NCBI GenBank assembly: GCA_024707405.1
Contig: JANPZU010000006.1
Location: 53,164-117,163, forward strand
Direction: 5' to 3'
Source: Luteimonas sp.
Lineage (GTDB): Bacteria > Pseudomonadota > Gammaproteobacteria > Xanthomonadales > Xanthomonadaceae
DNA: 64,000 bases
Shown here: one piece after another, positions 2,146 through 47,791 of the stretch
Numbering within the stretch: position 1 is the first letter of the stretch
Layout: the number at the start of each line of letters is the position of its first letter
Position numbers and translations under genes: made by a program
Notes under the pieces: model-generated
The model's database searches: none
Told to the model about the DNA's origin: nothing
Seen by the model: only the letters and a program-made list of their open reading frames with translations

Positions 2146-2760
2146 GTGACCGGCGGCGTGCGCCTCCTGCGCCTGTGGCCATGGGCGTTGGCCGTGTCGC
2201 TCGGTGTGGCCGGCGGCCTGGCCACGGCGCGCTGGTCGACCGGCGAGTCGGCGATCGAGCGTGTCCCGTCGCGGCCGGAATGGACCATCGACCGGTTCGC
2301 CGGCGCCGAGGCCGCAGGCATGCACACGCGTGCCCGCATCGCTCGTATCGGCCTGCTGGCATTGAGCCGGGATGAGGCGATGTACTACATCGCCGACCGC
2401 GATGCCGATGGCCGTCGCTTGCGCGAGGACTGCATCTACGAAGTGTCCGGCGGCGAGTTGCCGGCACGATGGTGGTCGCTGACCGTCTACGCGCAAGACC
2501 GTTTCCTTGCGCGCAACGAAGACCAGGCGCATTCGCTGGGCGCGGCGGGCCTTCCACGCGATGCCGGCGCGGATGCATGGCGCATCCGCCTTGCATCCGC
2601 GCGCAATGGCGAGACGCCATGGCTGTCGGTGCGCAATACGGATGCGCCGACGCTGGCGCTGCGCCTCTATCGTCCCGATGCCGCCTTGCGCGAAGATCCG
2701 CTCGGCATCGCATTGCCGCGCATCGAGCGACGATCCTGCGCCGCGGGGCGTGCGCCATGA
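2146..2760 (+). CDS. DUF1214-like protein with N-terminal signal/anchor
   Basis: GTG start lies 2 nt after the receptor stop. Hydrophobic N-terminus. Segment AMYYIADRDADGRRL...ARWWSLTVYAQDRF resembles the DUF1214 core. Confidence 0.6.
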   Translation: MTGGVRLLRLWPWALAVSLGVAGGLATARWSTGESAIERVPSRPEWTIDRFAGAEAAGMHTRARIARIGLLALSRDEAMYYIADRDADGRRLREDCIYEVSGGELPARWWSLTVYAQDRFLARNEDQAHSLGAAGLPRDAGADAWRIRLASARNGETPWLSVRNTDAPTLALRLYRPDAALREDPLGIALPRIERRSCAAGRAP

Positions 2761-6014: not shown

Positions 6015-7285
6015 CGCGGGGTGTCCTCTTCGTTCGTGGTGGGCAGTGGAGGGGAGCGGACGTCGACGATCGCGTCTGCGATCACGCCGTCGCGTGCAAG
6101 CGCATCGATCGCGTCGGCATCGAGGGAGAGCAGTTCGGCCAGCACTGCGCGCGTATCGCTGCCGGCCTCGGTGCCGGCCCAGCGCACTTCGCCCGGCGTT
6201 GCCGACAACTTCGGCACGATGCCCGGCAGCACGACTTCGCCCAGCGCCGGATGCGGCACGTCGAGCAGCATGTCGCGTGCGCGGTAATGCGCGTCCTCGA
6301 AGATGTCCGGCAGCGTGTACACGCGAGACACCGGCACGCCTGCAGCCTCAAGCGTGGATTCGACGGACTTTGCATCCCGTGCGCCGACCCAGTCGCCGAT
6401 GATCGCGTCGAGCGCGTCGACGTGATCCCAGCGTGCGCGGATGGTGGCGAAGCGCGGGTCGTCGATCAGGTCGGGGCGCGCCATCGCATGCGCGAGGCGC
6501 TCGTAGACCGCCTGGCTGTTGGCGGCGATCAGCACGTAGGTGCCGTCGCCGGCGGGATACAGGTTGTTGGGTGCCATCGCCGGCAGTCGCGTGCCCAGGC
6601 GCGAAGGCACCAGCTTGAGCTTGTCGTAGGTGGGGATCGCGCTGTCCATCATGCTGAAGGCGGCTTCGTACAGCGCCGCGTCGACCACCTGGCCACGGCC
6701 ACTGCGTTCGCGTTCCAGCAGCGCCATGGTCGCGCCGAAGGCGGCGTAGACCGCGGTGATGTAATCGGTCACCGGCACCGCGACGCGCGCGGGCGGCCGG
6801 TCGGGGTCGCCGGTGAGGTGGCGGATGCCGCCGAACGCTTCGCAGATCGCGCCGTAACCGCCCTTGTGCCGGTACGGGCCGGTCTGTCCGTAGCCGGAGA
6901 TGCGCACCAGCACCAGTCCCGGGTTGTCGCGCGAGAGTTCTTCGTAGCCGAGGCCGAGGCGTTCGAGCGTGCCGGGCCGGAAGTTCTCGACCACCACGTC
7001 GCACGTGGCCGCCAGCCTGCGCACCAGTTCCGCGCCCTCGGGCGTCTTGATGTCGATGATGGTGCTGCGCTTGTTGCGCATCAGCGACACGCCGGTCAGC
7101 GACACGTCGCCATCGCGGAAGCCGAGTGCGCGCGCGGGATCGCCCTGCGGCGGCTCGACCTTGATCACCTCGGCGCCGAAATCGGCGAACAGCCGCGTGC
7201 AGGCGGGGCCGGCGATGGTGCTGCACAGTTCCAGCACGCGGTAACCCGTCAACGGGCCGCGCGCCTCCGGGGGCGGTGCGGTCAT
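6011..7285 (-). CDS. family III CoA-transferase (CaiB/BaiF type)
   Basis: Start set at [46 protein letters not shown]. The stop overlaps the thiolase start (ATGA). Confidence 0.85.
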
Positions 7286-7361
7286 GCCTCGAGCTCCATC
7301 GATGTGGCGACGTGCCGGTCGCGGCGTGCGGACATGCGCGTACGCTTGCGCGCCGTTGCGG

Positions 7362-8171
7362 TCAGTCCTTGCGCGTGCGCTTGCGCGCCGGTTCCTTGGT
7401 GGCGATGTGGCCGACGTTCCACGCCGGTGCGCGATGCAGGATGCCCTGCGCGGCCTCCACTTCTTTCGCGCGCAACACGACCAGCCTGCGCGTGTGGCCG
7501 ACCAGTGCACGTGCCGCACGCTCGGCGCGCTCCTCGTCGCGTGCCAGCATCGCGTCGCGCAACGCCGCCTGCCGCGCCAGCGACTGCTGCACCCAGCGTG
7601 CCGGCGCCGGCATCAGGAAGCGATGCAGCCAGTACGCGGGCTTGCCGACGCGGCGCACCATGTTCGCCGCCATCGCGCTGCCGCAACTGGAGGCCAGCAC
7701 TTCCGCCGCCTGGTAGGCGACGCGGATCACCTCGAAGAAATCCATCTGCTTGTGCTGCCGCGCGACCTCGGCCGCCTCGCGCACCTTGTCCGCATAGCGG
7801 GCGAGATCCTCGTCGCTGGCATGGCGGGTCGCCAGCCGCGCGACCACGCCCTCGACTGCCGCCAGCAGGTCGAACAGATCCGCGATCTCGTCGGGCGACG
7901 GGTTGATCACCCGTGCGCCACGCCAGGGCATCACTTCCACCATGCCCTCGTGTTCGAGGATCCGCAGTGCCTCGCGTACCGGTGCCCGGCTGATGCCCAG
8001 CCGCTCGGAGACTTCCGGTTCGCGGATCCGGTCGCCCGGCCCGTAGGTGCCGGCCATGATGTCGCGCGTCAGCTGGCGCACCACCTTTTCGACCAGGCGG
8101 TCGCGATCCTCCGCCATCGGCACGTCCGACACGCTTTCGGTGTCCTGGGGCTTTCCGGGGGAAGGGGTCAT
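7362..8171 (-). CDS. GntR/FadR-family transcriptional regulator
   Basis: Winged HTH (SERLGISRAPVREALRILEHEGMV) followed by an all-helical FCD-like C-terminal domain. Divergent from the acyl-CoA dehydrogenase gene. Confidence 0.8.
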   Translation of the reverse strand: MTPSPGKPQDTESVSDVPMAEDRDRLVEKVVRQLTRDIMAGTYGPGDRIREPEVSERLGISRAPVREALRILEHEGMVEVMPWRGARVINPSPDEIADLFDLLAAVEGVVARLATRHASDEDLARYADKVREAAEVARQHKQMDFFEVIRVAYQAAEVLASSCGSAMAANMVRRVGKPAYWLHRFLMPAPARWVQQSLARQAALRDAMLARDEERAERAARALVGHTRRLVVLRAKEVEAAQGILHRAPAWNVGHIATKEPARKRTRKD

Positions 8172-37929: not shown

Positions 37930-39831
37930 TCAGGCTGCGTCTCCGCGCAACGTGCGCACCTTCGCTTCCAGTTGCTCCGCGGTAGCGTGGGCATCGTGGA
38001 TCGGCGCATCGGCCACCACGCCGATATGCGCACGGAAGCGGCGCGGCACGCGCATGCGGCCCAACCGCGAATCCTGCCGGCTCCACATGCTGCGCCACAT
38101 CCCGCGCAGCGCCATCGGCACGACCGGCACCACCTGTCCACGCGCAGCGGCGCGTTCGAGGATCTTCTCCACGCCCGACTTGAATTTCGCGATCTCGCCA
38201 TCCTTGGTCAATGCGCCCTCGGGGAAGATGCCGACGATCTGCCCGTCGGCCAACGCGGCGTCGATCTGGTCGAACGCGCGCTGCATCAGCGCCGCGTCTT
38301 CCTTCGGGCTGGCGATGGGAATGGCCTTCGCCGTGCGGAAGATCCAGCGCATCACCGGGATGTCGAAGATCCGGTAGTACATGACGAAGCGCACCGGCCG
38401 CGGGATGCTGGCCGCCAGGATCAGCGCGTCCATGTAGCTGACGTGGTTGCACACCACCAGCGCCGGGCCCTCGTCGGGCACGTGCTTCTCGATGCCGTGC
38501 AGTTCCAGCCGGTACAGCGCGCGCACCAGCACCCAGCTGACCAGCCGCATCAGGAACTCGGGCACGATGGTGAAGATCCAGATCGCCACCAGCGTGTTGG
38601 CGATGGCCAGCGCCAGGAACACCTGCGGGATCGTCCAGCCGAGGAAACGCTGCACCGCGATGCCGATGATCGCGGCGCTGACGATGAACAGCGAATTCTG
38701 GATGTTGAGCCCGGCGATCACGCGCGCCAGTTCGCCCTTCGGCGTGCGGCTCTGGATCAGCGCGAACAGCGGCACCACGAACAGGCCGGTGAACAGGCCG
38801 ATGCCGACCAGATCGAACATGATCCGCAGGCTGCCCGGTGCGCGCACGAACTCCGACAGCGACAAGCCCGCCTGCAGCGCGGCACCGGGACGTGCGAAGT
38901 ACAGGTCGAGCAGGAAAGCGCTGACGCCGAATGCACCCAGCGGCACCAGCCCGATCTCCACGATGCGGCCCGACAGCTTCTCGCACAGCAGCGAGCCCAC
39001 GCCCACCCCGACCGAAAACAGGCCCAGCGCGAGGATGTAGAGGTTCTTCGATCCGAGGTTGATGTCCGCGTAGCCGGGCAACTGCGCGGTCAGCATCGTG
39101 CCGACGAACCAGAACCACGACACGCCCAGGATCGCGTTGCGCACCGCCAGTTGCTTGCGCGCCAGCTTCCATACCGCGATGGTTTCGGGGGTCGGGTTCC
39201 AGTTGATCGCCAGCTCCGGCGCACCGGCATCGACCTTCGGGATGCGTCGCGCCAGCACGTTGCCGGTGATCGCCAGCAGCACGATGGATGCGGCCGCGAC
39301 CTGGAACCCGTGCTCGCCGAACACCTGGAACACCAACCCGCCGTAGACCATGCCCAGCAGGATCGAGATCGACGTGCCCATCTCGACCAGCCCATTGCCG
39401 CCGGTCAGTTCCTCGGGCCTGAGCACCGACGGCAGGATCGAATACTTCACCGGCCCGAACAGCGTGGACTGCGTGCCGGTGAGGAACAGCGCCACCAGCA
39501 GCACCGGCATGTTCTGCATCAAAAAGCCGATGGCCGCGACCGACATGATCGCGATCTCCATCGTCGTGGTGATCACGATCAGCTTCTGCTTCTCCAGCTT
39601 CTCCGCGACCTGTCCCGCAAGGCCGGAGAACAGGAAGTAGGGCAGGATGAACAACGCCGGCGCGAGATTGGCGTACAGCGTCATCTGCTCGCTGGCCACC
39701 GCCATGTACAGCAACATGCCGATGATCGACTGTCGATAGACGTTGTCGTTGAACGCGCCCAGCGCCTGCACCGAGAAGTACGGCAGGAAGCGGCGCTCGC
39801 GAAGCAGGGTGAACTGGCTGTGGCCGGACAT
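37930..39831 (-). CDS. MFS lysophospholipid transporter fused to PlsC-type acyltransferase (LplT/Aas-like)
   Basis: Start at MSGHSQFTLLRERRFLPYF. 12-TM MFS N-terminal part. C-terminal NHVSYMDAL (HX4D) acyltransferase motif. Confidence 0.85.
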   Translation of the reverse strand: MSGHSQFTLLRERRFLPYFSVQALGAFNDNVYRQSIIGMLLYMAVASEQMTLYANLAPALFILPYFLFSGLAGQVAEKLEKQKLIVITTTMEIAIMSVAAIGFLMQNMPVLLVALFLTGTQSTLFGPVKYSILPSVLRPEELTGGNGLVEMGTSISILLGMVYGGLVFQVFGEHGFQVAAASIVLLAITGNVLARRIPKVDAGAPELAINWNPTPETIAVWKLARKQLAVRNAILGVSWFWFVGTMLTAQLPGYADINLGSKNLYILALGLFSVGVGVGSLLCEKLSGRIVEIGLVPLGAFGVSAFLLDLYFARPGAALQAGLSLSEFVRAPGSLRIMFDLVGIGLFTGLFVVPLFALIQSRTPKGELARVIAGLNIQNSLFIVSAAIIGIAVQRFLGWTIPQVFLALAIANTLVAIWIFTIVPEFLMRLVSWVLVRALYRLELHGIEKHVPDEGPALVVCNHVSYMDALILAASIPRPVRFVMYYRIFDIPVMRWIFRTAKAIPIASPKEDAALMQRAFDQIDAALADGQIVGIFPEGALTKDGEIAKFKSGVEKILERAAARGQVVPVVPMALRGMWRSMWSRQDSRLGRMRVPRRFRAHIGVVADAPIHDAHATAEQLEAKVRTLRGDAA

Positions 39832-39916
39832 GCGCCCTCCCGATGACGCGGCGAGCCTAGCAGAAGCCGCGCCCGGGCCAGTAACATCCCCCGACCATCG
39901 GCGGCCCGGAACCACA

Positions 39917-41370
39917 GTGTTCGAACAGGCGTTCAAGAATATCGACGACATCCTGCACAAGGATGCCGGCTGCACCAGCGAGCTGGACTACACCGAGCAA
40001 TCGTCCTGGCTGCTGTTCCTCAAGTACCTTGACGCGCTGGAGCGCGAGCGGGCGATGGAGGCTGAGCTGGAAGGCCGCAAGTACGACTGGCTGCTGCAGA
40101 AGAAGTACCGCTGGGAAAGCTGGGCGGCGCCGAAGAAGAAGGGCGGCGCTTTCGATCACGACAAGGCGCTGACCGGCCCCGACCTCATCGACTTTGTCGA
40201 TGACCAACTGTTCCCCTATCTGGAAGGTTTCAAGCGGCGCGCATCCGGGCCGCAGACGCTGGAATACAAGATCGGCGAGATCTTCGGCGAGATCGGCAAT
40301 AAGATCCGCTCCGGCTACAACCTGCGTGACGTGATCGAGCGGGTGGACGAACTGCGCTTTGGTACCAGCGCCGAGAAGCACGAACTCTCGCACCTGTACG
40401 AGGCCAAGGTGCGCAACATGGGCAACGCCGGGCGCAACGGCGGCGAGTACTACACCCCGCGCCCGCTGATCCGCGCCATGATCCAAGTCGTCGACCCGCA
40501 GATCGGCGAGACCATCTACGACGGTGCCTGCGGCAGCGCCGGCTTCCTGTGCGAGGCCTTCGACCATCTGCGCAGCAACAAAAAGCTGTCCACGAAGGAT
40601 GCGAAGACGCTGCAGGAAAAGACTTTCTACGGGCAGGAGAAGAAGGGCCTGGCCTACGTGATTGGCGTGATGAACATGATCCTGCACGGGATCGAGGCGC
40701 CCAACATCATCCACGCCAATACGCTGGGCCAGAACCTCAACGACATCCAGCAAAAGACCAGAAGACCATCGTGCTGGCCAACCCGCCGTTCGGCGGCAAG
40801 GAGCGCAAGGAAGTCCAGCAGAACTTCCCCATCAAGACCGGCGAGACCGCGTTCCTGTTCCTGCAGCACTTCATCCGCATGCTCAAGCCCGGTGGGCGCG
40901 CGGCCATCGTGATCAAGAACACCTTCCTGTCCAACACCGACAACGCCAGCACCAGCCTGCGCCGCAAGCTGCTGGCCGAATGCAACCTGCACACCGTGCT
41001 CGATTGCCCGTCCGGCACCTTCCAGGGCGCGGGCGTGAAGACCGTGGTGCTGTTCTTCGAGAAGGGCGCGCCCACGCGCAAGACTTGGTTCTACCAGCTC
41101 GACCCGGGCCGCAGCCTAGGCAAGACCAACCCGCTCAACGATGCCGATCTGGCCGAGTTCGTGGCATTGCAGAAGACGTTTGCCGATTCGCCGAAAAGTT
41201 GGTCAGTGGATGCGGCCAGCGTCGATCAGGCCACGTTCGACCTGTCGGTGAAGAACCCGAACGGAGGTGAGGTGGTTGCGCAGCGCAGTCCGCGTGAAAT
41301 CCTCGACGAGATTGCGGCGCTGGATGGGGCGAGTGCGCAGGTGTTGGCGAAGATCAGGGCATTGGTATGA
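39917..41370 (+). pseudogene. hsdM: type I restriction-modification DNA methyltransferase subunit HsdM, frameshifted
   Basis: GTG start (VFEQAFKNIDDILHKDAGC). Motif I DGACGSAGFL is in the 39743 ORF frame. Motif IV LANPPFGG is in the 40549 ORF frame. The switch is at the CAGCAAAAGAC run (~40751). Confidence 0.85.
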
Positions 41371-42533
41371 GCAGTGGTTGGCATGCGGCGAAGCTCAGTG
41401 ATGTTTGCGAGTTTCACAATGGCCTATGGAAAGGGGATAAAGGCCCGTTTGTGAATGTGGGTGTTATACGAAACACGAATTTCACCAAAGATGGAACGCT
41501 CGACGATAGCGATATTGCTTATCTCGATGTCGAAGAAAAGAAATTCGAGAAGAGAAGGCTCCAATTCGGAGACATCATTCTTGAGAAGTCTGGCGGCGGC
41601 CCAAAGCAGGCAGTTGGCAGAGTTGCGTTCTTCGACAAGAAATATGGTGACTTCTCCTTCAGCAATTTCACGTCCGCCATTAGGGTGCGTGATCAGGAAG
41701 CGTTGGCCGCAGAATATCTTCACAGATTCTTGCATTGGCAGTATCTGTCGGGCGTAACTGAGTCGATGCAGAGCCACTCCACCGGCATCAGGAATCTGGA
41801 TGGCGACGCCTACAAGGCGATAGAAGTCAGGTTCCCGAATGTCCGTGAGCAGCGTCGAATCGTCGCCCTCCTCGACGAAGCGTTTGCTGGCATCGCCACC
41901 GCCAAGGCCAATGCCGAGCAGAGCCTGCGGAAGGCCCGTGACGTTGATGCCAGTCATCGTCGGTCGTTGTTTATCGGTAGTGCATGGCCCCTGACGACAC
42001 TGAATCGCATTGCCAGAAATCTGGACAGCAAGCGTATTCCTATCACCAAAGGTGATCGTACGCCGGGCGAGTTTCCCTACTACGGCGCATCGGGAGTCGT
42101 TGACTACGTGGCGGACTACATCTTCGATGGCGACGCATTGCTGGTTTCAGAGGATGGCGCCAACCTGTTGTCGCGCTCCACGCCAATTGCCTTTTCGGTC
42201 ACCGGAAAGTATTGGGTGAACAATCACGCCCATATCCTTCAGTTCGACGACATGGTGACGCAGAAGTTCGTCGAGTTCTATCTGGAGAGCATTCCGCTCG
42301 ACGACTACATCACGGGGGCGGCGCAACCCAAGCTCAACCAGAAGGCGCTGAACTCGATTCCTGTGCCAATTCCAGCCGACATTCAGGAGCGCGTGGCAGT
42401 TGTCGCAAGAATCGAGGCCATGAATCAGGAAACGGATCGGCTTCAATCCCTCTACAACCGCAAACTTGCCGCCCTCGACGAACTCAAGCAATCCCTGCTG
42501 CAGCAGGCGTTCTCGGGACAACTGTGGCGATGA
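41367..42533 (+). CDS. hsdS: type I restriction-modification specificity subunit HsdS
   Basis: Two target-recognition domains, each followed by a conserved helix (...LLDEAFAGI..., ...LKQSLLQQAFSGQL). The start overlaps the hsdM stop (ATGA). Visibly lower G+C. Confidence 0.85.
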   Translation: MSSGWHAAKLSDVCEFHNGLWKGDKGPFVNVGVIRNTNFTKDGTLDDSDIAYLDVEEKKFEKRRLQFGDIILEKSGGGPKQAVGRVAFFDKKYGDFSFSNFTSAIRVRDQEALAAEYLHRFLHWQYLSGVTESMQSHSTGIRNLDGDAYKAIEVRFPNVREQRRIVALLDEAFAGIATAKANAEQSLRKARDVDASHRRSLFIGSAWPLTTLNRIARNLDSKRIPITKGDRTPGEFPYYGASGVVDYVADYIFDGDALLVSEDGANLLSRSTPIAFSVTGKYWVNNHAHILQFDDMVTQKFVEFYLESIPLDDYITGAAQPKLNQKALNSIPVPIPADIQERVAVVARIEAMNQETDRLQSLYNRKLAALDELKQSLLQQAFSGQLWR

Positions 42534-43162
42534 CCGGCCGCTATGCCATGCACGGTGCGGAAGGGGATGCCCAGCCCGGATCGCGCGGACGCGTGCTGGC
42601 CAACCGCCTCGGCATCGTGCGGGTGGGCGCGATGCAAGCGGCGGAATCGGATGCGCTGGTCGCGCTTGCCGGTGCACTGCTGCTGGAAGTGGACGAGCGA
42701 CAGGTGTTCAACGCGGCCACCCTGCAGGACTGGCATCGGCGCTGGCTGGGCGGCATCTATCCGTGGGCCGGCCAGTACCGGCAGGTCAACATGAGCAAGG
42801 GCGGCTTCCTGTTTGCCGCGGCGCATCTGCTCGATCGCCTGATGGCCGACTATTCGCGGGATGTGCTGGGTGCATGGACACCCTGCGCCGGCATGGATGA
42901 GGGACGGCTGGTGCGGGCGCTGGCGTTGATCCACGCGGAATTCATCCTGATCCATCCATTCCGGGAGGGGAATGGTCGGCTGGCACGCCTGCTGAACACG
43001 ATGATGGCGCTACAGGCGGGCTTGCCTGCGCTGGACTATGGCGGTATCGCCGGGCGCGGGAAACGCGAGTACATCGCCGCAATCCACGCGGCGCAGGGGT
43101 GCGATTACGGGCCGATGGAACAGGTGTTCCGCAAGGTGCTGCGGCGGACGCAGCGGAGTTAA
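42530..43162 (+). CDS. Fic-domain protein (FicT-type toxin candidate)
   Basis: Canonical HPFREGNGR motif. ~210 aa. ATG overlaps the hsdS stop (ATGA). No internal [ST]xxxE[GN] inhibitory motif was found. Confidence 0.85.
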   Translation: MTGRYAMHGAEGDAQPGSRGRVLANRLGIVRVGAMQAAESDALVALAGALLLEVDERQVFNAATLQDWHRRWLGGIYPWAGQYRQVNMSKGGFLFAAAHLLDRLMADYSRDVLGAWTPCAGMDEGRLVRALALIHAEFILIHPFREGNGRLARLLNTMMALQAGLPALDYGGIAGRGKREYIAAIHAAQGCDYGPMEQVFRKVLRRTQRS

Positions 43163-43326
43163 CGCTTCTTGGCGACCTTCTTCGCCACGGCGCGCTTGAC
43201 CGCCTTTGCCTTGAACGGCGCGCGGATGCCCTCGACGGCCGAGGATGTGGCAATGGTCAGGCGAACGGCCTTCTCGCGCTTGGCGGCGCTGGACAGGTGC
43301 TTGTTGCTGAGGGCGAGGTTGGCCAT
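43159..43326 (-). CDS. small VbhA/FicA-like antitoxin candidate with Lys/Ala tail
   Basis: 55 codons with strong G/C third-position bias. REKAVRLTIATSSAVEGIRAP carries S-x-x-x-E-G. Its stop overlaps the fic stop within GTTAAC. No obvious SD. Confidence 0.55.
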   Translation of the reverse strand: MANLALSNKHLSSAAKREKAVRLTIATSSAVEGIRAPFKAKAVKRAVAKKVAKKR

Positions 43327-43533
43327 GGGAAGGATGCTAGCAGAGTCCCCATGGATGGTGGCTGAGGCGGTGGACAGGGCCGTGTCGCGGACAACAAGAA
43401 CCCCCGCGTAGGTTCCGGGGAACCAAGAGGCGGGGGCCATGTTGGGCAGGATTATGGCAGGTCGTGGCAATGGCGTGGCCGGTGCCCGGGATTCATCAGG
43501 CGGGCAGGTTGTTATCCTCGCATCCAAGGGGAA

Positions 43534-45873
43534 ATGATGAACGAATCCGAGACCCGCGCCGAACTGATCGACCCGGCCCTGAAGGCCGCGGGCTGGGGCG
43601 TGGTGGAAGGCAGCCAGGTGCGGCGCGAGTTCCGCATCACGCAGGGGCGGTTGCAGGGTCACGGCCAGCGGGCCAAGCCCGAGATTGCCGACTACGTGCT
43701 GGTGTACCGCAACCTCAAGCTGGCGGTGGTCGAGGCCAAGGCCCGGGGCGTGGCCTGTGCCGAGGGCGTGATGCAGGCCAAGGCCTATGCGGCGAAACTC
43801 GATGTGCGCTTCACCTATGCCAGCAACGGCCAGTCGATCTACGGCATCGACATGGCGACCGGCGCGGAAGGTGACGTTGCCGCCTTCCCCGGCCCGGAGG
43901 CACTGTGGGCGCGCACCTTTGCCAATGCCAACGCCTGGCGCGACCGCTTCGCTGCCATACCGTTCGAGAACAAGGGCGGCACCTGGCAGGGACGCTACTA
44001 CCAGGACATCGCCATCCAGTGCGTGCTGGATGCCATTGCTGAGGGACGTGACCGCATCCTGCTGACGCTCGCAACCGGCACCGGCAAGACCTTCATCGCG
44101 TTCCAACTGGCGTGGAAGCTGTTCCACAGCAAGTGGAATCTAAGTGACTGGAAGGGGAAGGGCGAACCAGTCCGTCGCCCGCGCATCCTGTTCCTGGCCG
44201 ATCGCAACATCCTGGCCGACCAGGCCTATAACGCGTTTTCGGCCTTCGACGAGGATGCGCTGGTGCGGATCGCGCCGGACGACATCCGCAGGCAGGGCCG
44301 GGTGCCGAAGAACGGCAGCGTGTTCTTCACCATCTTCCAGACCTTCATGAGCGGGCCGCCAAGGAATGGCGAGCCGTCGCCGTACTTCGGCGACTATCCG
44401 CCGGACTTCTTCGACTTCATCGTCATCGATGAATGCCACCGCGGCGGTGCGAAGGATGAAAGCAGCTGGCGCGCGATCCTCGACTACTTTTCGCCCGCCG
44501 TGCAATTGGGCTTGACTGCCACACCACTGCGGCGGAGCAATGCCGACACCTATGCGTACTTCGGTGAACCGGTCTATTCCTATTCGCTCAAGCAAGGCAT
44601 CAACGATGGCTTCCTGACGCCGTTCCGGGTCAAGCAGTGGGCCACCACGCTGGACGACTACACCTACACGCCCGACGATGCGGTGTTGGAGGGCGAGGTG
44701 GTGCCGGGCAAGCGCTATGTGGAGGGCGACTTCAACCGGGTGATCGTGATCCCCGAGCGCGAGGCGTTCCGCGTGCGCGAGTGGATGGGGCAGGTGGATC
44801 CGCGCGAAAAGACGCTGGTGTTCTGTGCCACGCAGGAACACGCGGCGATGGTGCGTGACCTGGTCAACCAGAACAAGACGGTGCCCGATCCGCTGTATTG
44901 CGTTCGTGTCACCGCCAACGACGGCGCGAAAGGCGAGGAATACCTGCGTGACTTCCAGGACAACGAAAAGACGATTCCGACGATCCTGACTACTTCGCAG
45001 AAGCTGTCCACCGGTGTTGACGCGCGCAATGTGCGCAACATCGTGCTGATGCGGCCGGTGAACTCGATGATCGAGTTCAAGCAGATCGTCGGTCGTGGCA
45101 CCCGCCTGTACGACGGCAAGGACTACTTCACCATCCATGATTTCGTGAAGGCCTACCTGCATTTCAACGACCCGGAATGGGACGGCGAGCCGCTAGATCC
45201 GGAGCCGTCGCGTCCGCGTCCGCCGCGCGGCGGTGACGACACGACGGCCGGGCCGGGCGAAGGCGGCGATCCGCCGCCGCGTCCGCAGCGGATCAAGGTG
45301 AAGCTGGCCGATGGCAAGGAACGTCGGATCCAGAGCATGGTGGCCACGACGTTCTGGAGTGCGGACGGCAAGCCCATGTCCGCCGCGCAATTCCTGGAGA
45401 GCCTGTTCGGCACGCTGCCGGAATTCTTCAGGGACGAAGACCAATTGCGGGAACTCTGGAGCGAGCCGACAACGCGCAGGGCGTTGCTGGATGGACTGGC
45501 CGAGAAAGGGTTCGGGCGCGAAGCCTTGGCCGGGATGCAGGCAGCCATCGAGGCCGACGACAGCGATCTGTTCGATGTACTGGCCTACGTGGCCTACACG
45601 CGTGCGCCGATCCCGCGCAGCGAACGCGCCATCTTGGCCAAGGCGGCGGTCAACACGAGTTACAAGAGCGACCGCCATCTGGCGTTCGTGGAGTTCGTGT
45701 TGGATCACTATGTCCGCGAGGGCGTCGATGAGCTGGACATGGAGAAACTCACGCCGCTGCTGCGCCTGAAATACAACGCCATCGCCGATGCTGCAGCGGA
45801 TCTCGGCTCGCCCGAGCAGATCCGGCTGACCTTCATTGGGTTCCAGAAGCATCTCTATCAGGATTCGCGCTGA
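43534..45873 (+). CDS. hsdR: type I restriction endonuclease subunit HsdR (EcoEI-like, short form)
   Basis: N-terminal nuclease (ADYVLV...VVEAK). Helicase motifs TGTGKT and IDECHRGG. C-terminal EcoEI_R_C-like region. AAGGGGAA RBS. Confidence 0.9.
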   Translation: MMNESETRAELIDPALKAAGWGVVEGSQVRREFRITQGRLQGHGQRAKPEIADYVLVYRNLKLAVVEAKARGVACAEGVMQAKAYAAKLDVRFTYASNGQSIYGIDMATGAEGDVAAFPGPEALWARTFANANAWRDRFAAIPFENKGGTWQGRYYQDIAIQCVLDAIAEGRDRILLTLATGTGKTFIAFQLAWKLFHSKWNLSDWKGKGEPVRRPRILFLADRNILADQAYNAFSAFDEDALVRIAPDDIRRQGRVPKNGSVFFTIFQTFMSGPPRNGEPSPYFGDYPPDFFDFIVIDECHRGGAKDESSWRAILDYFSPAVQLGLTATPLRRSNADTYAYFGEPVYSYSLKQGINDGFLTPFRVKQWATTLDDYTYTPDDAVLEGEVVPGKRYVEGDFNRVIVIPEREAFRVREWMGQVDPREKTLVFCATQEHAAMVRDLVNQNKTVPDPLYCVRVTANDGAKGEEYLRDFQDNEKTIPTILTTSQKLSTGVDARNVRNIVLMRPVNSMIEFKQIVGRGTRLYDGKDYFTIHDFVKAYLHFNDPEWDGEPLDPEPSRPRPPRGGDDTTAGPGEGGDPPPRPQRIKVKLADGKERRIQSMVATTFWSADGKPMSAAQFLESLFGTLPEFFRDEDQLRELWSEPTTRRALLDGLAEKGFGREALAGMQAAIEADDSDLFDVLAYVAYTRAPIPRSERAILAKAAVNTSYKSDRHLAFVEFVLDHYVREGVDELDMEKLTPLLRLKYNAIADAAADLGSPEQIRLTFIGFQKHLYQDSR

Positions 45874-47133: not shown

Positions 47134-47559
47134 TCAGCGGTAGCGGCCGGGCCTATCGTGCACCGCGTCGGGCGTTGGCGAGGACAGCCGCGCGCGTAGC
47201 CATGCAGCGAAATCGGCTTCGGACAACGAGCCTTCGGCCAGACTGATGTAGACGGGGTACAAGGTCACGTCATCGGCAAGCAGTTCGGTGCCGTTGAGCA
47301 GCAGGAATGTTTCGCAGGCGACGGCCGCCGTGCGTTTGTTCCCGTCCACGAATGGATGGTTGCGTGCAAGCCCATAGGTGAGGCTGGCCGCGAGATCCGC
47401 AAGGTCGGGTGGCGGATTGCCATAGGCATGCAGCTGCAGAGGCCGCGCCAGCGCCGATTCGAGGAGTGCTTCGTCGCGCACGCCGCTGCCGCCGCCGTGC
47501 TCGGCCAACTGGCGCTCGTGAATGGCAAGCGCCAATGCGCGCGACAGCCAGACGATCAC
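47134..47559 (-). CDS. doc: Doc (death-on-curing) family toxin
   Basis: GTG start. Fic-fold motif HPFVDGNKRTA typical of Doc kinases. 141 aa. Confidence 0.85.
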   Translation of the reverse strand: MIVWLSRALALAIHERQLAEHGGGSGVRDEALLESALARPLQLHAYGNPPPDLADLAASLTYGLARNHPFVDGNKRTAAVACETFLLLNGTELLADDVTLYPVYISLAEGSLSEADFAAWLRARLSSPTPDAVHDRPGRYR

Positions 47560-47569
47560 TTCGTCGCGC

Positions 47570-47791
47570 CTATTGTGCGAGCTTGCGCAGCAGTGTCTTG
47601 CGCTTGCGCATGACCTGCTCGGCCACTTCCATCTGCGCCGCCAGCTCCGGATCGAACGCGGTCAAGCGGATGCCGTCGGGGGTTTCCAGTGCATAGAGTT
47701 CGTCGCCCTTGTCCAGGCGCAGGCGCGCCAGTAGATCCTTGGGCAGGATCACGCCGGCGGAGTTGCCGATGGTGGTGATCTTGAGCTTCAT
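47570..47791 (-). CDS. AbrB/MazE/SpoVT-type antitoxin (Phd functional analogue)
   Basis: MKLKITTIGNSAGVILPKDLLARL swapped-hairpin motif. 73 aa. Its stop lies 10 nt upstream of the doc start. Confidence 0.8.
   Translation of the reverse strand: MKLKITTIGNSAGVILPKDLLARLRLDKGDELYALETPDGIRLTAFDPELAAQMEVAEQVMRKRKTLLRKLAQ

Follow-up and report, generated by a model that had tools for sequence, protein, structure and literature searches.

The type I restriction-modification (R-M) locus in a metagenome-assembled genome (MAG) of Luteimonas sp. (assembly GCA_024707405.1) raises the question of what a gene for a Fic protein and a small open reading frame (ORF) on the opposite strand are doing together between the specificity gene and the restriction gene. 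The window, which here means the whole stretch of 64,000 nucleotides that was analysed (contig JANPZU010000006.1, positions 53,164 to 117,163 of the forward strand), carries the genes in the order hsdM, hsdS, fic, the minus-strand small ORF and hsdR (Table 1). We propose, with a probability of roughly 0.8, that fic and the small ORF, placed between hsdS and hsdR, are the two genes of a FicY-AntY-type module, a toxin-antitoxin pair or a defence candidate. A preliminary description of the locus had viewed the pair as a Fic toxin with a VbhA/FicA-like antitoxin in an unusual convergent arrangement. Its sequence statements (the coordinates, the lengths of 210 and 55 residues, the motifs and the stop codons overlapping within GTTAAC) were all correct on re-check. 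A class I Fic protein with a trans-acting, convergently encoded antitoxin is well supported; the novelty of the convergent layout and membership of the VbhA family are not supported.

The Fic protein (ATG at 42530, TAA at 43160-43162) contains the complete active-site motif HxFx(D/E)GNGRxxR, in which H142, P143, F144, R145, G147, N148, G149, R150 and R153 are invariant among 22 homologues and E146 is nearly invariant. An alignment of 66 family members has no conserved column for an internal inhibitory [ST]xxxE[GN] motif; the pattern appears at two alignment columns, each time in a single one of the 66 members. Thus, what we found is a complete motif, no inhibitory helix in the polypeptide itself, and a separate, linked small protein that carries the inhibitory motif, which are the features of a class I Fic protein as defined by Engel et al. 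2012 and restated in PMC12249575 and PMC7479194. Together with the Pfam match (Table 1), this upholds the class I assignment of the preliminary description.

The small convergent gene starts with the ATG at 43326 and stops at 43161-43159. The N-terminal core of 39 residues is conserved and the basic tail is variable: in 14 close homologues the first 39 residues are kept, and the Lys-rich tails differ by in-frame insertions and deletions. The histone H1-like tail, which had been pointed out as a feature of the antitoxin, is therefore what varies within the family. When 1.84 billion representatives were searched with a profile, the result was at least 113 clusters of small proteins at 50% identity, mostly 55-110 residues long. 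For the genomic context, 80 independent genome loci were retrieved with the Fic alignment and scanned in six frames with a hidden Markov model (HMM) of the small protein at E <= 0.005. In 77 of the 80 loci a match lies immediately beyond the 3' end of fic, on the other strand, and the remaining three (from Elusimicrobia, Omnitrophota and Bacteroidota) have divergent candidates in the same place; the linked loci span Gamma- and Betaproteobacteria, Acidobacteria, Verrucomicrobia and others. The preliminary description had made conservation of the small ORF in relatives a check of its proposal, and the convergent homologues answer it in the affirmative. Among 31 diverse small proteins, S28, E32 and G33 are the sole invariant columns (consensus [ST]SSA[IV]EG[IV]), and [ST]xxxE[GN] is found in 80 of the 81 small proteins that were extracted, in agreement with the earlier statement that the inhibitory motif, S28xxxE32G33 in the window, resides on the separate convergent protein. 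The distance matrices of the Fic proteins and of the small-protein cores correlate with a Mantel r of 0.815, a value reached in 0 of 2000 permutations, which means that both genes have been inherited together. In the AlphaFold model of the small protein, a single long helix spans residues 14-54, with a pLDDT of about 72-79 near the motif. A recurrent third gene was also sought, and no conserved upstream family was found among the surveyed loci. From this conservation, we conclude that the small ORF is a real gene. The ATG at 43326 is its conserved start in the alignments; one database entry, P0002 (93 residues), starts further upstream.

A promoter of its own is a further mark of this gene. 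When the 70 nucleotides preceding the start codon of the small gene were aligned for 73 loci, 67 of these showed a TAnnnT box, starting at -12 in 53 of them and at -13 in 14, and a TG one base upstream of the box, found in 33 of the 67, makes it an extended -10 element of the form TGnTAnAAT. Matches to a -35 element are weak, and a C occupies -1 in 47 of the 67. A Shine-Dalgarno (SD)-like motif upstream of the small gene was found in one of the 73 loci, and none was found in the window. With the standard spacing of sigma-70, transcription would start at or beside the A of the ATG; thus, the mRNA of the small gene is predicted to be leaderless. The conservation of this promoter across phyla is strong comparative evidence that the small gene is expressed independently. 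It surfaced only by comparison across loci; a generic promoter and terminator scan of 42900-43700 returned nothing, including no intrinsic terminator between fic and the small gene. Over the loci, fic and the small gene overlap at their 3' ends by -28 to +98 nt, typically 20-47 nt, and by 4 nt in the window.

The family shows several variations on this plan. A subclade (L020, L033, L043, L045-L048, L050, L053, L064, L067-L071, L075-L077 and L080-L083) has a conserved C-terminal F[IT]A[YH]W[KQ][RQ]R..A...R in place of the Lys-rich tail. Its 3' overlap with fic is constant at 41-47 nt in most members, so that a single stretch of DNA encodes, on its two strands, parts of the C-termini of both proteins. 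In L033 ('Candidatus Defluviibacillus'), two copies of the small gene lie about 4 kb apart, at 2406-2618(-) and 6602-7489(-); one of them adjoins the anchor fic, and the two may belong to a tandem pair of modules. A 62-residue ORF between hsdS and fic in one metagenomic relative, L003 (2038-2226(-)), has no Pfam match and no counterpart in the other loci. In the window, the frame of the small gene stays open for 322 codons antisense to hsdR (43159-44127(-)), a typical high-GC artefact. A search for single-chain fusions of Fic and the small protein found no full-length fusion and only one 96-residue chimera, P0197, from a single ENA contig of 2677 bp, in which the last ~38 Fic residues (…LQAGLPALDFGGIRGAKKREYFAAVHAALGREYYPM) are in frame with a complete antitoxin-like sequence on the same strand; a rearrangement, a chimera made in assembly or a rare fusion of the class III-like sort could explain it. 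The idea that the C-terminal tails of the Fic proteins (e.g. ...RTLKSVATSS*) hold a truncated class III inhibitory helix akin to the small protein was rejected; the similarity of the Fic tail to the small core equals the shuffled expectation (2.42 versus 2.39 +/- 0.07 for 71 non-redundant pairs), and the composition of the tail probably reflects in part its antisense overlap with the tail of the small gene.

What does such a pair do? The best guide is FicY-AntY of Yersinia pseudotuberculosis YPIII, described by Lu et al. 2020, in which antY lies downstream of and convergent to ficY (PMC7479194). AntY (S22TAIET27) inhibits the AMPylation of ParE by FicY in vitro in a dose-dependent manner, and FicY blocks relaxation by topoisomerase IV and causes filamentation and SOS (PMC7479194). 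A metagenome contig, L084, was identified by an exact match to a primer in the supplement of that paper (a search of viral contigs with the FicY primer gave no match). It encodes a Fic protein of 210 residues and a convergent ORF of 52 residues (MTKKTVHSQITKTQIYRSVASSTAIETGV..., with S22TAIET27), and their stop codons overlap by 4 nt as in the window. The window Fic shares 40% identity over 201 residues with this FicY-like protein (E 2e-47). The AntY-like protein of L084 aligns to the small-family profile with an hhalign probability of 62% and an E value of 7.5e-5, over a short stretch of 15 columns centred on the motif, and in a six-frame search of L084 with the small-family HMM the AntY-like ORF is the only match (E 1.7e-4). 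The same arrangement is found on the IncHI plasmid pNDM-CIT, where the stop codons again overlap by 4 nt as in the window, and on a Marinomonas plasmid; there the genes are annotated 'Fic family protein' and 'hypothetical protein'.

Two side observations concern these relatives. The supplement primers of PMC7479194 labelled 'FicY ... for cloning YPK_0608' fit the AntY-like ORF (L084 1749-1907) and not the 210-residue Fic, with primer ATGACAAAAAAAACAGTACACAG matching the start of that ORF and the reverse primer CTAGCGGGCGAGGCCAAC its end; the primer table seems to have its labels or its locus tags swapped. In addition, some small proteins have an extra residue between the Glu and the Gly of the motif, namely S-T-A-[IL]-E-I-G in Elusimicrobia and Omnitrophota (L049 6455-6715(-), L065 1413-1628(-)) and SS[ST]AIE-T-G in the AntY-type proteins of Enterobacterales and Marinomonas (L084 1749-1907(-), L085 4609-4767(-), L086 4627-4785(-)). 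The proteins with these variants are shorter and also without an N-terminal SN(P)xL segment.

The gene structure, the conservation, the co-variation, the promoter conservation and the FicY/AntY homology can be read directly from the sequences; toxicity, its target, the mechanism of Glu32, the lability of the antitoxin and any role in phage defence are inferred. The Fic protein would be an AMP-transferase without an inhibitory helix of its own. Its most likely targets, by homology with FicY and Fic-1, would be the ATPase subunits of topoisomerase IV and gyrase (ParE/GyrB), and their modification would lead to the arrest of replication and segregation. The 55-residue protein, as a single long helix, would provide the S-x-x-x-E-G inhibitory motif in trans; judging from homologous systems, Glu32 would engage R153, the second Arg of the Fic motif, and obstruct productive ATP binding, and by analogy with Fic-1-AntF the complex may become a de-AMPylase. 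The toxin gene would be transcribed and translated with hsdM and hsdS. Its ATG overlaps the stop codon of hsdS (ATGA; hsdS ends at 42533 and fic starts at 42530), and the translational coupling noted in the preliminary description is retained. The antitoxin gene, with an extended -10 promoter to itself, would be transcribed towards fic into a leaderless mRNA, and the two mRNAs would be complementary at their 3' ends. A labile antitoxin, activation by phage and a back-up role behind restriction are speculative additions to this mechanism.

Several points weigh against the FicY-AntY assignment and the mechanism drawn from it. The similarity of the small protein to AntY is weak and extends over 15 residues only, and AntY-type proteins carry E-T-G in place of E-G. 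The ParE/GyrB target is extrapolated from proteins that are at most 40% identical. The small protein has no significant match to a curated antitoxin family or a solved structure: at E <= 1 the window protein had no match in Pfam or NCBIfam, and neither had 31 relatives at E <= 10 (one of the 31 family members matched Fic_N at E 0.068), and the family has no meaningful match among PADLOC models or PDB sequences, VbhA and YhfG included. The AlphaFold2 (AF2) monomer model of Fic, built from a shallow alignment, is poor (pLDDT 65.6), which makes the structural check for an internal inhibitory helix a weak one. The one functional report found for PDC-S04, a PADLOC defence candidate to which this Fic belongs (see below), describes no defence activity in a native host. 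Finally, hsdM is frameshifted in the window, so that expression of the hsdMS-fic operon is uncertain in Luteimonas sp.

Table 1. Coordinates of the features at the fic locus (positions in the 64,000-nt window)
Feature	Position	Strand	Basis
hsdM, type I methyltransferase, in two overlapping frames (39743-40912 and 40549-41370)	39743..41370	+	Pfam N6_Mtase, HsdM_N
hsdS, specificity subunit	41367..42533	+	Pfam Methylase_S E 6.6e-23, two stretches; intact
fic, class-I-type Fic toxin candidate (FicY / PADLOC PDC-S04 subfamily), 210 aa	42530..43162	+	Pfam Fic E 5e-16
Fic active-site motif H142-P-F-R-E-G-N-G-R150-L-A-R153 (HPFREGNGRLAR)	42953..42988	+	sequence, alignment
GTTAAC palindrome with both stop codons; 4-nt overlap of fic and the small gene	43158..43163	.	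sequence
Small convergent gene, AntY-like antitoxin candidate, 55 aa (MANLALSNKHLSSAAKREKAVRLTIATSSAVEGIRAPFKAKAVKRAVAKKVAKKR)	43159..43326	-	homologues, HMM, 77/80 loci
Inhibitory-helix motif S28-S-A-V-E32-G33	43228..43245	-	sequence, alignment
Extended -10 element TGcTAGCAT, ending 7 nt before the small-gene ATG	43334..43342	-	cross-locus alignment
hsdR, restriction subunit	43534..45873	+	Pfam ResIII 2e-34, EcoEI_R_C 7e-26, HSDR_N; intact

The surrounding R-M genes need to be considered next. The two frames of hsdM divide the N6_Mtase profile between them: the first ORF, which also has HsdM_N, covers positions 3-121, and the second covers 122-304. The frameshift lies near 40745-40765, in a ...cagcaaaagaccagaagacc... 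stretch, and the true start of hsdM is probably downstream of 39743. The split is either an assembly error of the MAG or a genuine pseudogene; the latter would disable the type I system. The hsdR gene is divergent from the small gene, with a 207-nt spacer between them. The GC content of hsdS (54-55% at 41500-42500) is below that of the flanks (66-70%), and fic and the small gene are host-like at ~66-67%, which suggests a recent exchange of the specificity gene. A second toxin of the Fic/Doc fold, of the Doc type (HPFVDGNKR), is encoded at 47134-47559(-) with an upstream MazE/AbrB-type antitoxin at 47570-47791(-); this is a classical co-directional pair, 4 kb from the fic/small-gene cassette. 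In another Luteimonas MAG (L001), the cassette stands beside a type III-like Mod-RhuM-Res system, and a Doc/MazE pair as in the window (L001 1854-2512) adjoins it. The same cassette and Doc/MazE pair with a different R-M system suggest that the R-M partner was exchanged within a defence-island hot spot.

Homologues of type I or III R-M seed proteins are present in 35 of the 80 loci. A methylase or specificity gene is located just upstream on the fic strand in 22, and nine have the complete methylase-[fic><small]-restriction sandwich, of type I in L004-L007 and type III-like in L013, L017, L018, L028 and L042; the other 45 loci have no match to the seeds, which are of limited reach. By Pfam, the upstream neighbours include N6_N4_Mtase (9), N6_Mtase (4) and Methylase_S (3), ResIII is found downstream (15), and further neighbours are TOTE, RES, AbiEi, Mrr, MmeI and integrases. 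The window Fic also matches the PADLOC model PDLC04839 of the defence candidate PDC-S04 with an E value of 1e-73 (residues 1-205 on profile positions 1-203 of 205). PADLOC defines PDC-S04 as a candidate of one gene and has no model for a small partner gene such as that of the window Fic. The preliminary description had asked whether the pair recurs between hsdS and hsdR in related genomes: it recurs between methylase or specificity and restriction genes in the nine sandwiches, but the association is not obligatory. We regard it as recurrent and suggestive, and a functional coupling as a hypothesis.

It is possible that the module is not an autonomous toxin-antitoxin cassette but is functionally wired to the R-M system, with Fic serving as an abortive-infection or addiction back-up or AMPylating an R-M subunit; such a Fic would fire when R-M is disabled or lost, or would regulate restriction. 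The coupling of fic to hsdS, the sandwiches in both type I and type III surroundings, the module beside a type III-like system in the other Luteimonas genome and the match to a defence-island candidate all speak for this. We nevertheless consider it doubtful. Over half of the loci are without an R-M seed match, even allowing for the limited seeds; FicY/AntY-like pairs adjoin integrases on a genomic island or lie on IncHI plasmids; FicY is toxic through ParE without any R-M partner (PMC7479194); PDC-S04 had no defence phenotype in one native host; and the hsdM of the window is frameshifted. The wiring to the type I system that the preliminary description envisaged is accordingly not established. 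A more specific version, which we put forward only tentatively and think unlikely, makes the fic><small cassette a dedicated companion of type I and type III R-M systems, a second line of defence behind restriction. The methylase/specificity operon, with fic as its last cistron, would be the sole source of the toxin, and the antitoxin would be translated from a leaderless mRNA that is made constitutively at the extended -10 promoter and continues antisense into fic. When a phage shuts off transcription or attacks the R-M locus, the short-lived antitoxin would decay, and the freed Fic would AMPylate gyrase and topoisomerase IV, thus aborting the infection. If this were true, the 'single-gene' PDC-S04 of PADLOC would be a two-gene system, and tests of PDC-S04 may fail when the small gene or the native convergent context is left out or changed.

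The minus-strand transcript itself might be the regulator, acting mainly as an antisense RNA on fic by type I-like control or transcriptional interference, with the peptide being secondary. Several features would suit an antisense RNA: the genes converge, and in most loci their 3' ends overlap, by as much as 98 nt, with a short gap instead in a few; no intrinsic terminator was detected between them; and the promoter is strongly conserved. However, conservation is at the level of amino acids, with invariant Ser, Glu and Gly and in-frame indels in the tail; the overlap has no conserved length (in the window it is 4 nt, and some loci have a negative value); and it is the purified AntY protein that inhibits FicY (PMC7479194). 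This makes a primarily antisense function very unlikely. Even less credence can be given to the view that the S-x-x-x-E-G match is a coincidence and that the small basic protein binds DNA to regulate transcription (of hsdR or fic, for instance) or is an unrelated protein of a histone-like nature. Its Lys/Arg-rich tail and its position in the divergent promoter region with hsdR would fit such a role, but the basic tail is not conserved and is replaced by F[IT]AYW[KQ]RR in one subclade, the small gene tracks fic and not hsdR across contexts, the conserved core is exactly the inhibitory motif, and there is no match to a DNA-binding family. An antitoxin of the AntY kind thus remains our preferred reading of the small gene.

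As the pair appears homologous to a published and validated module, it opens no new category. The new details are modest: the family-wide distribution, the leaderless extended -10 promoter, the embedding in R-M loci and the two-gene nature of PDC-S04. They do indicate that an AntY-like antitoxin is not an oddity of Yersinia; rather, a large family accompanies this Fic clade and is unmatched by Pfam, NCBIfam and PADLOC models. The partner gene, which seems to be an obligatory one, matters for anyone who clones PDC-S04 for phage-defence tests. In addition, the leaderless extended -10 design and the repeated lodging between modification and restriction genes provide a concrete hypothesis for toxin release in infection.

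How does the pair compare with known systems? The toxin PrrC is nested in the type I R-M locus EcoprrI. The Doc/Phd-like TvrAT in the pneumococcal tvr locus shows no addiction phenotype and damps recombinase expression (PMC6265443). Both resemble the window in having a toxin-type gene nested between hsd genes, and both differ from it in toxin family and regulation. In SoFic-AS1, likewise, a small protein of 47 residues, encoded downstream, counteracts the toxicity of a defence protein with a Fic domain; unlike the window Fic, SoFic is a two-domain class II protein with its own N-terminal inhibitory helix (PMC12249575), and the window Fic matches the SoFic model over the catalytic core only.

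Among solved structures, the window Fic is closest by sequence to Fic-1 of Pseudomonas bijieensis 2P24 (8WT0, E 5.7e-23), then to VbhT and E. coli Fic. Fic-1 AMPylates GyrB and ParE and is neutralised by AntF, a small protein with an essential Glu; the complex is a de-AMPylase, for which Glu28 of AntF is catalytic (PMC13327609). The antF gene is directly upstream of and co-transcribed with fic-1, whereas the small gene of the window is downstream and convergent, and a PDB sequence search found no detectable similarity between the small protein and AntF. VbhT-VbhA and E. coli Fic-YhfG (3SHG/3ZC7, 5JFF) have Fic cores homologous to the window Fic (E ~1e-14) and likewise carry the motif on a separate small helical protein, the S/E/G register of which aligns with the window protein; the VbhA motif ALASQRLEGL, which the preliminary description cited, is indeed present in 3ZC7_B. 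Their antitoxin genes, however, are upstream and on the same strand as the toxin gene. Against the small-family profile, VbhA and YhfG (sequences confirmed in PDB) reached hhalign probabilities of only 0.2% and 1.1%, with the motif alone aligned; membership of the VbhA/FicA/YhfG families is therefore not supported.

With FicY-AntY the window pair shares a class I Fic of ~210 residues, a motif protein of ~52-55 residues encoded downstream and convergently, and a common core ...SVA[ST]S[ST]AIE.... Differences exist here as well. AntY-type proteins lack the N-terminal SN(P)xL segment that the window family has; their genes have an apparent short leader with an SD sequence (TAGAAT 26 nt upstream, GAGGG), whereas the small gene of the window is predicted to be leaderless; and their context is an integrase on a genomic island or an IncHI plasmid, whereas that of the window pair is an R-M system. 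The convergent layout, which had seemed unusual for a Fic module, has already been published for an experimentally validated pair (PMC7479194), and the window pair is probably a rather distant relative of it within the FicY-AntY kind.

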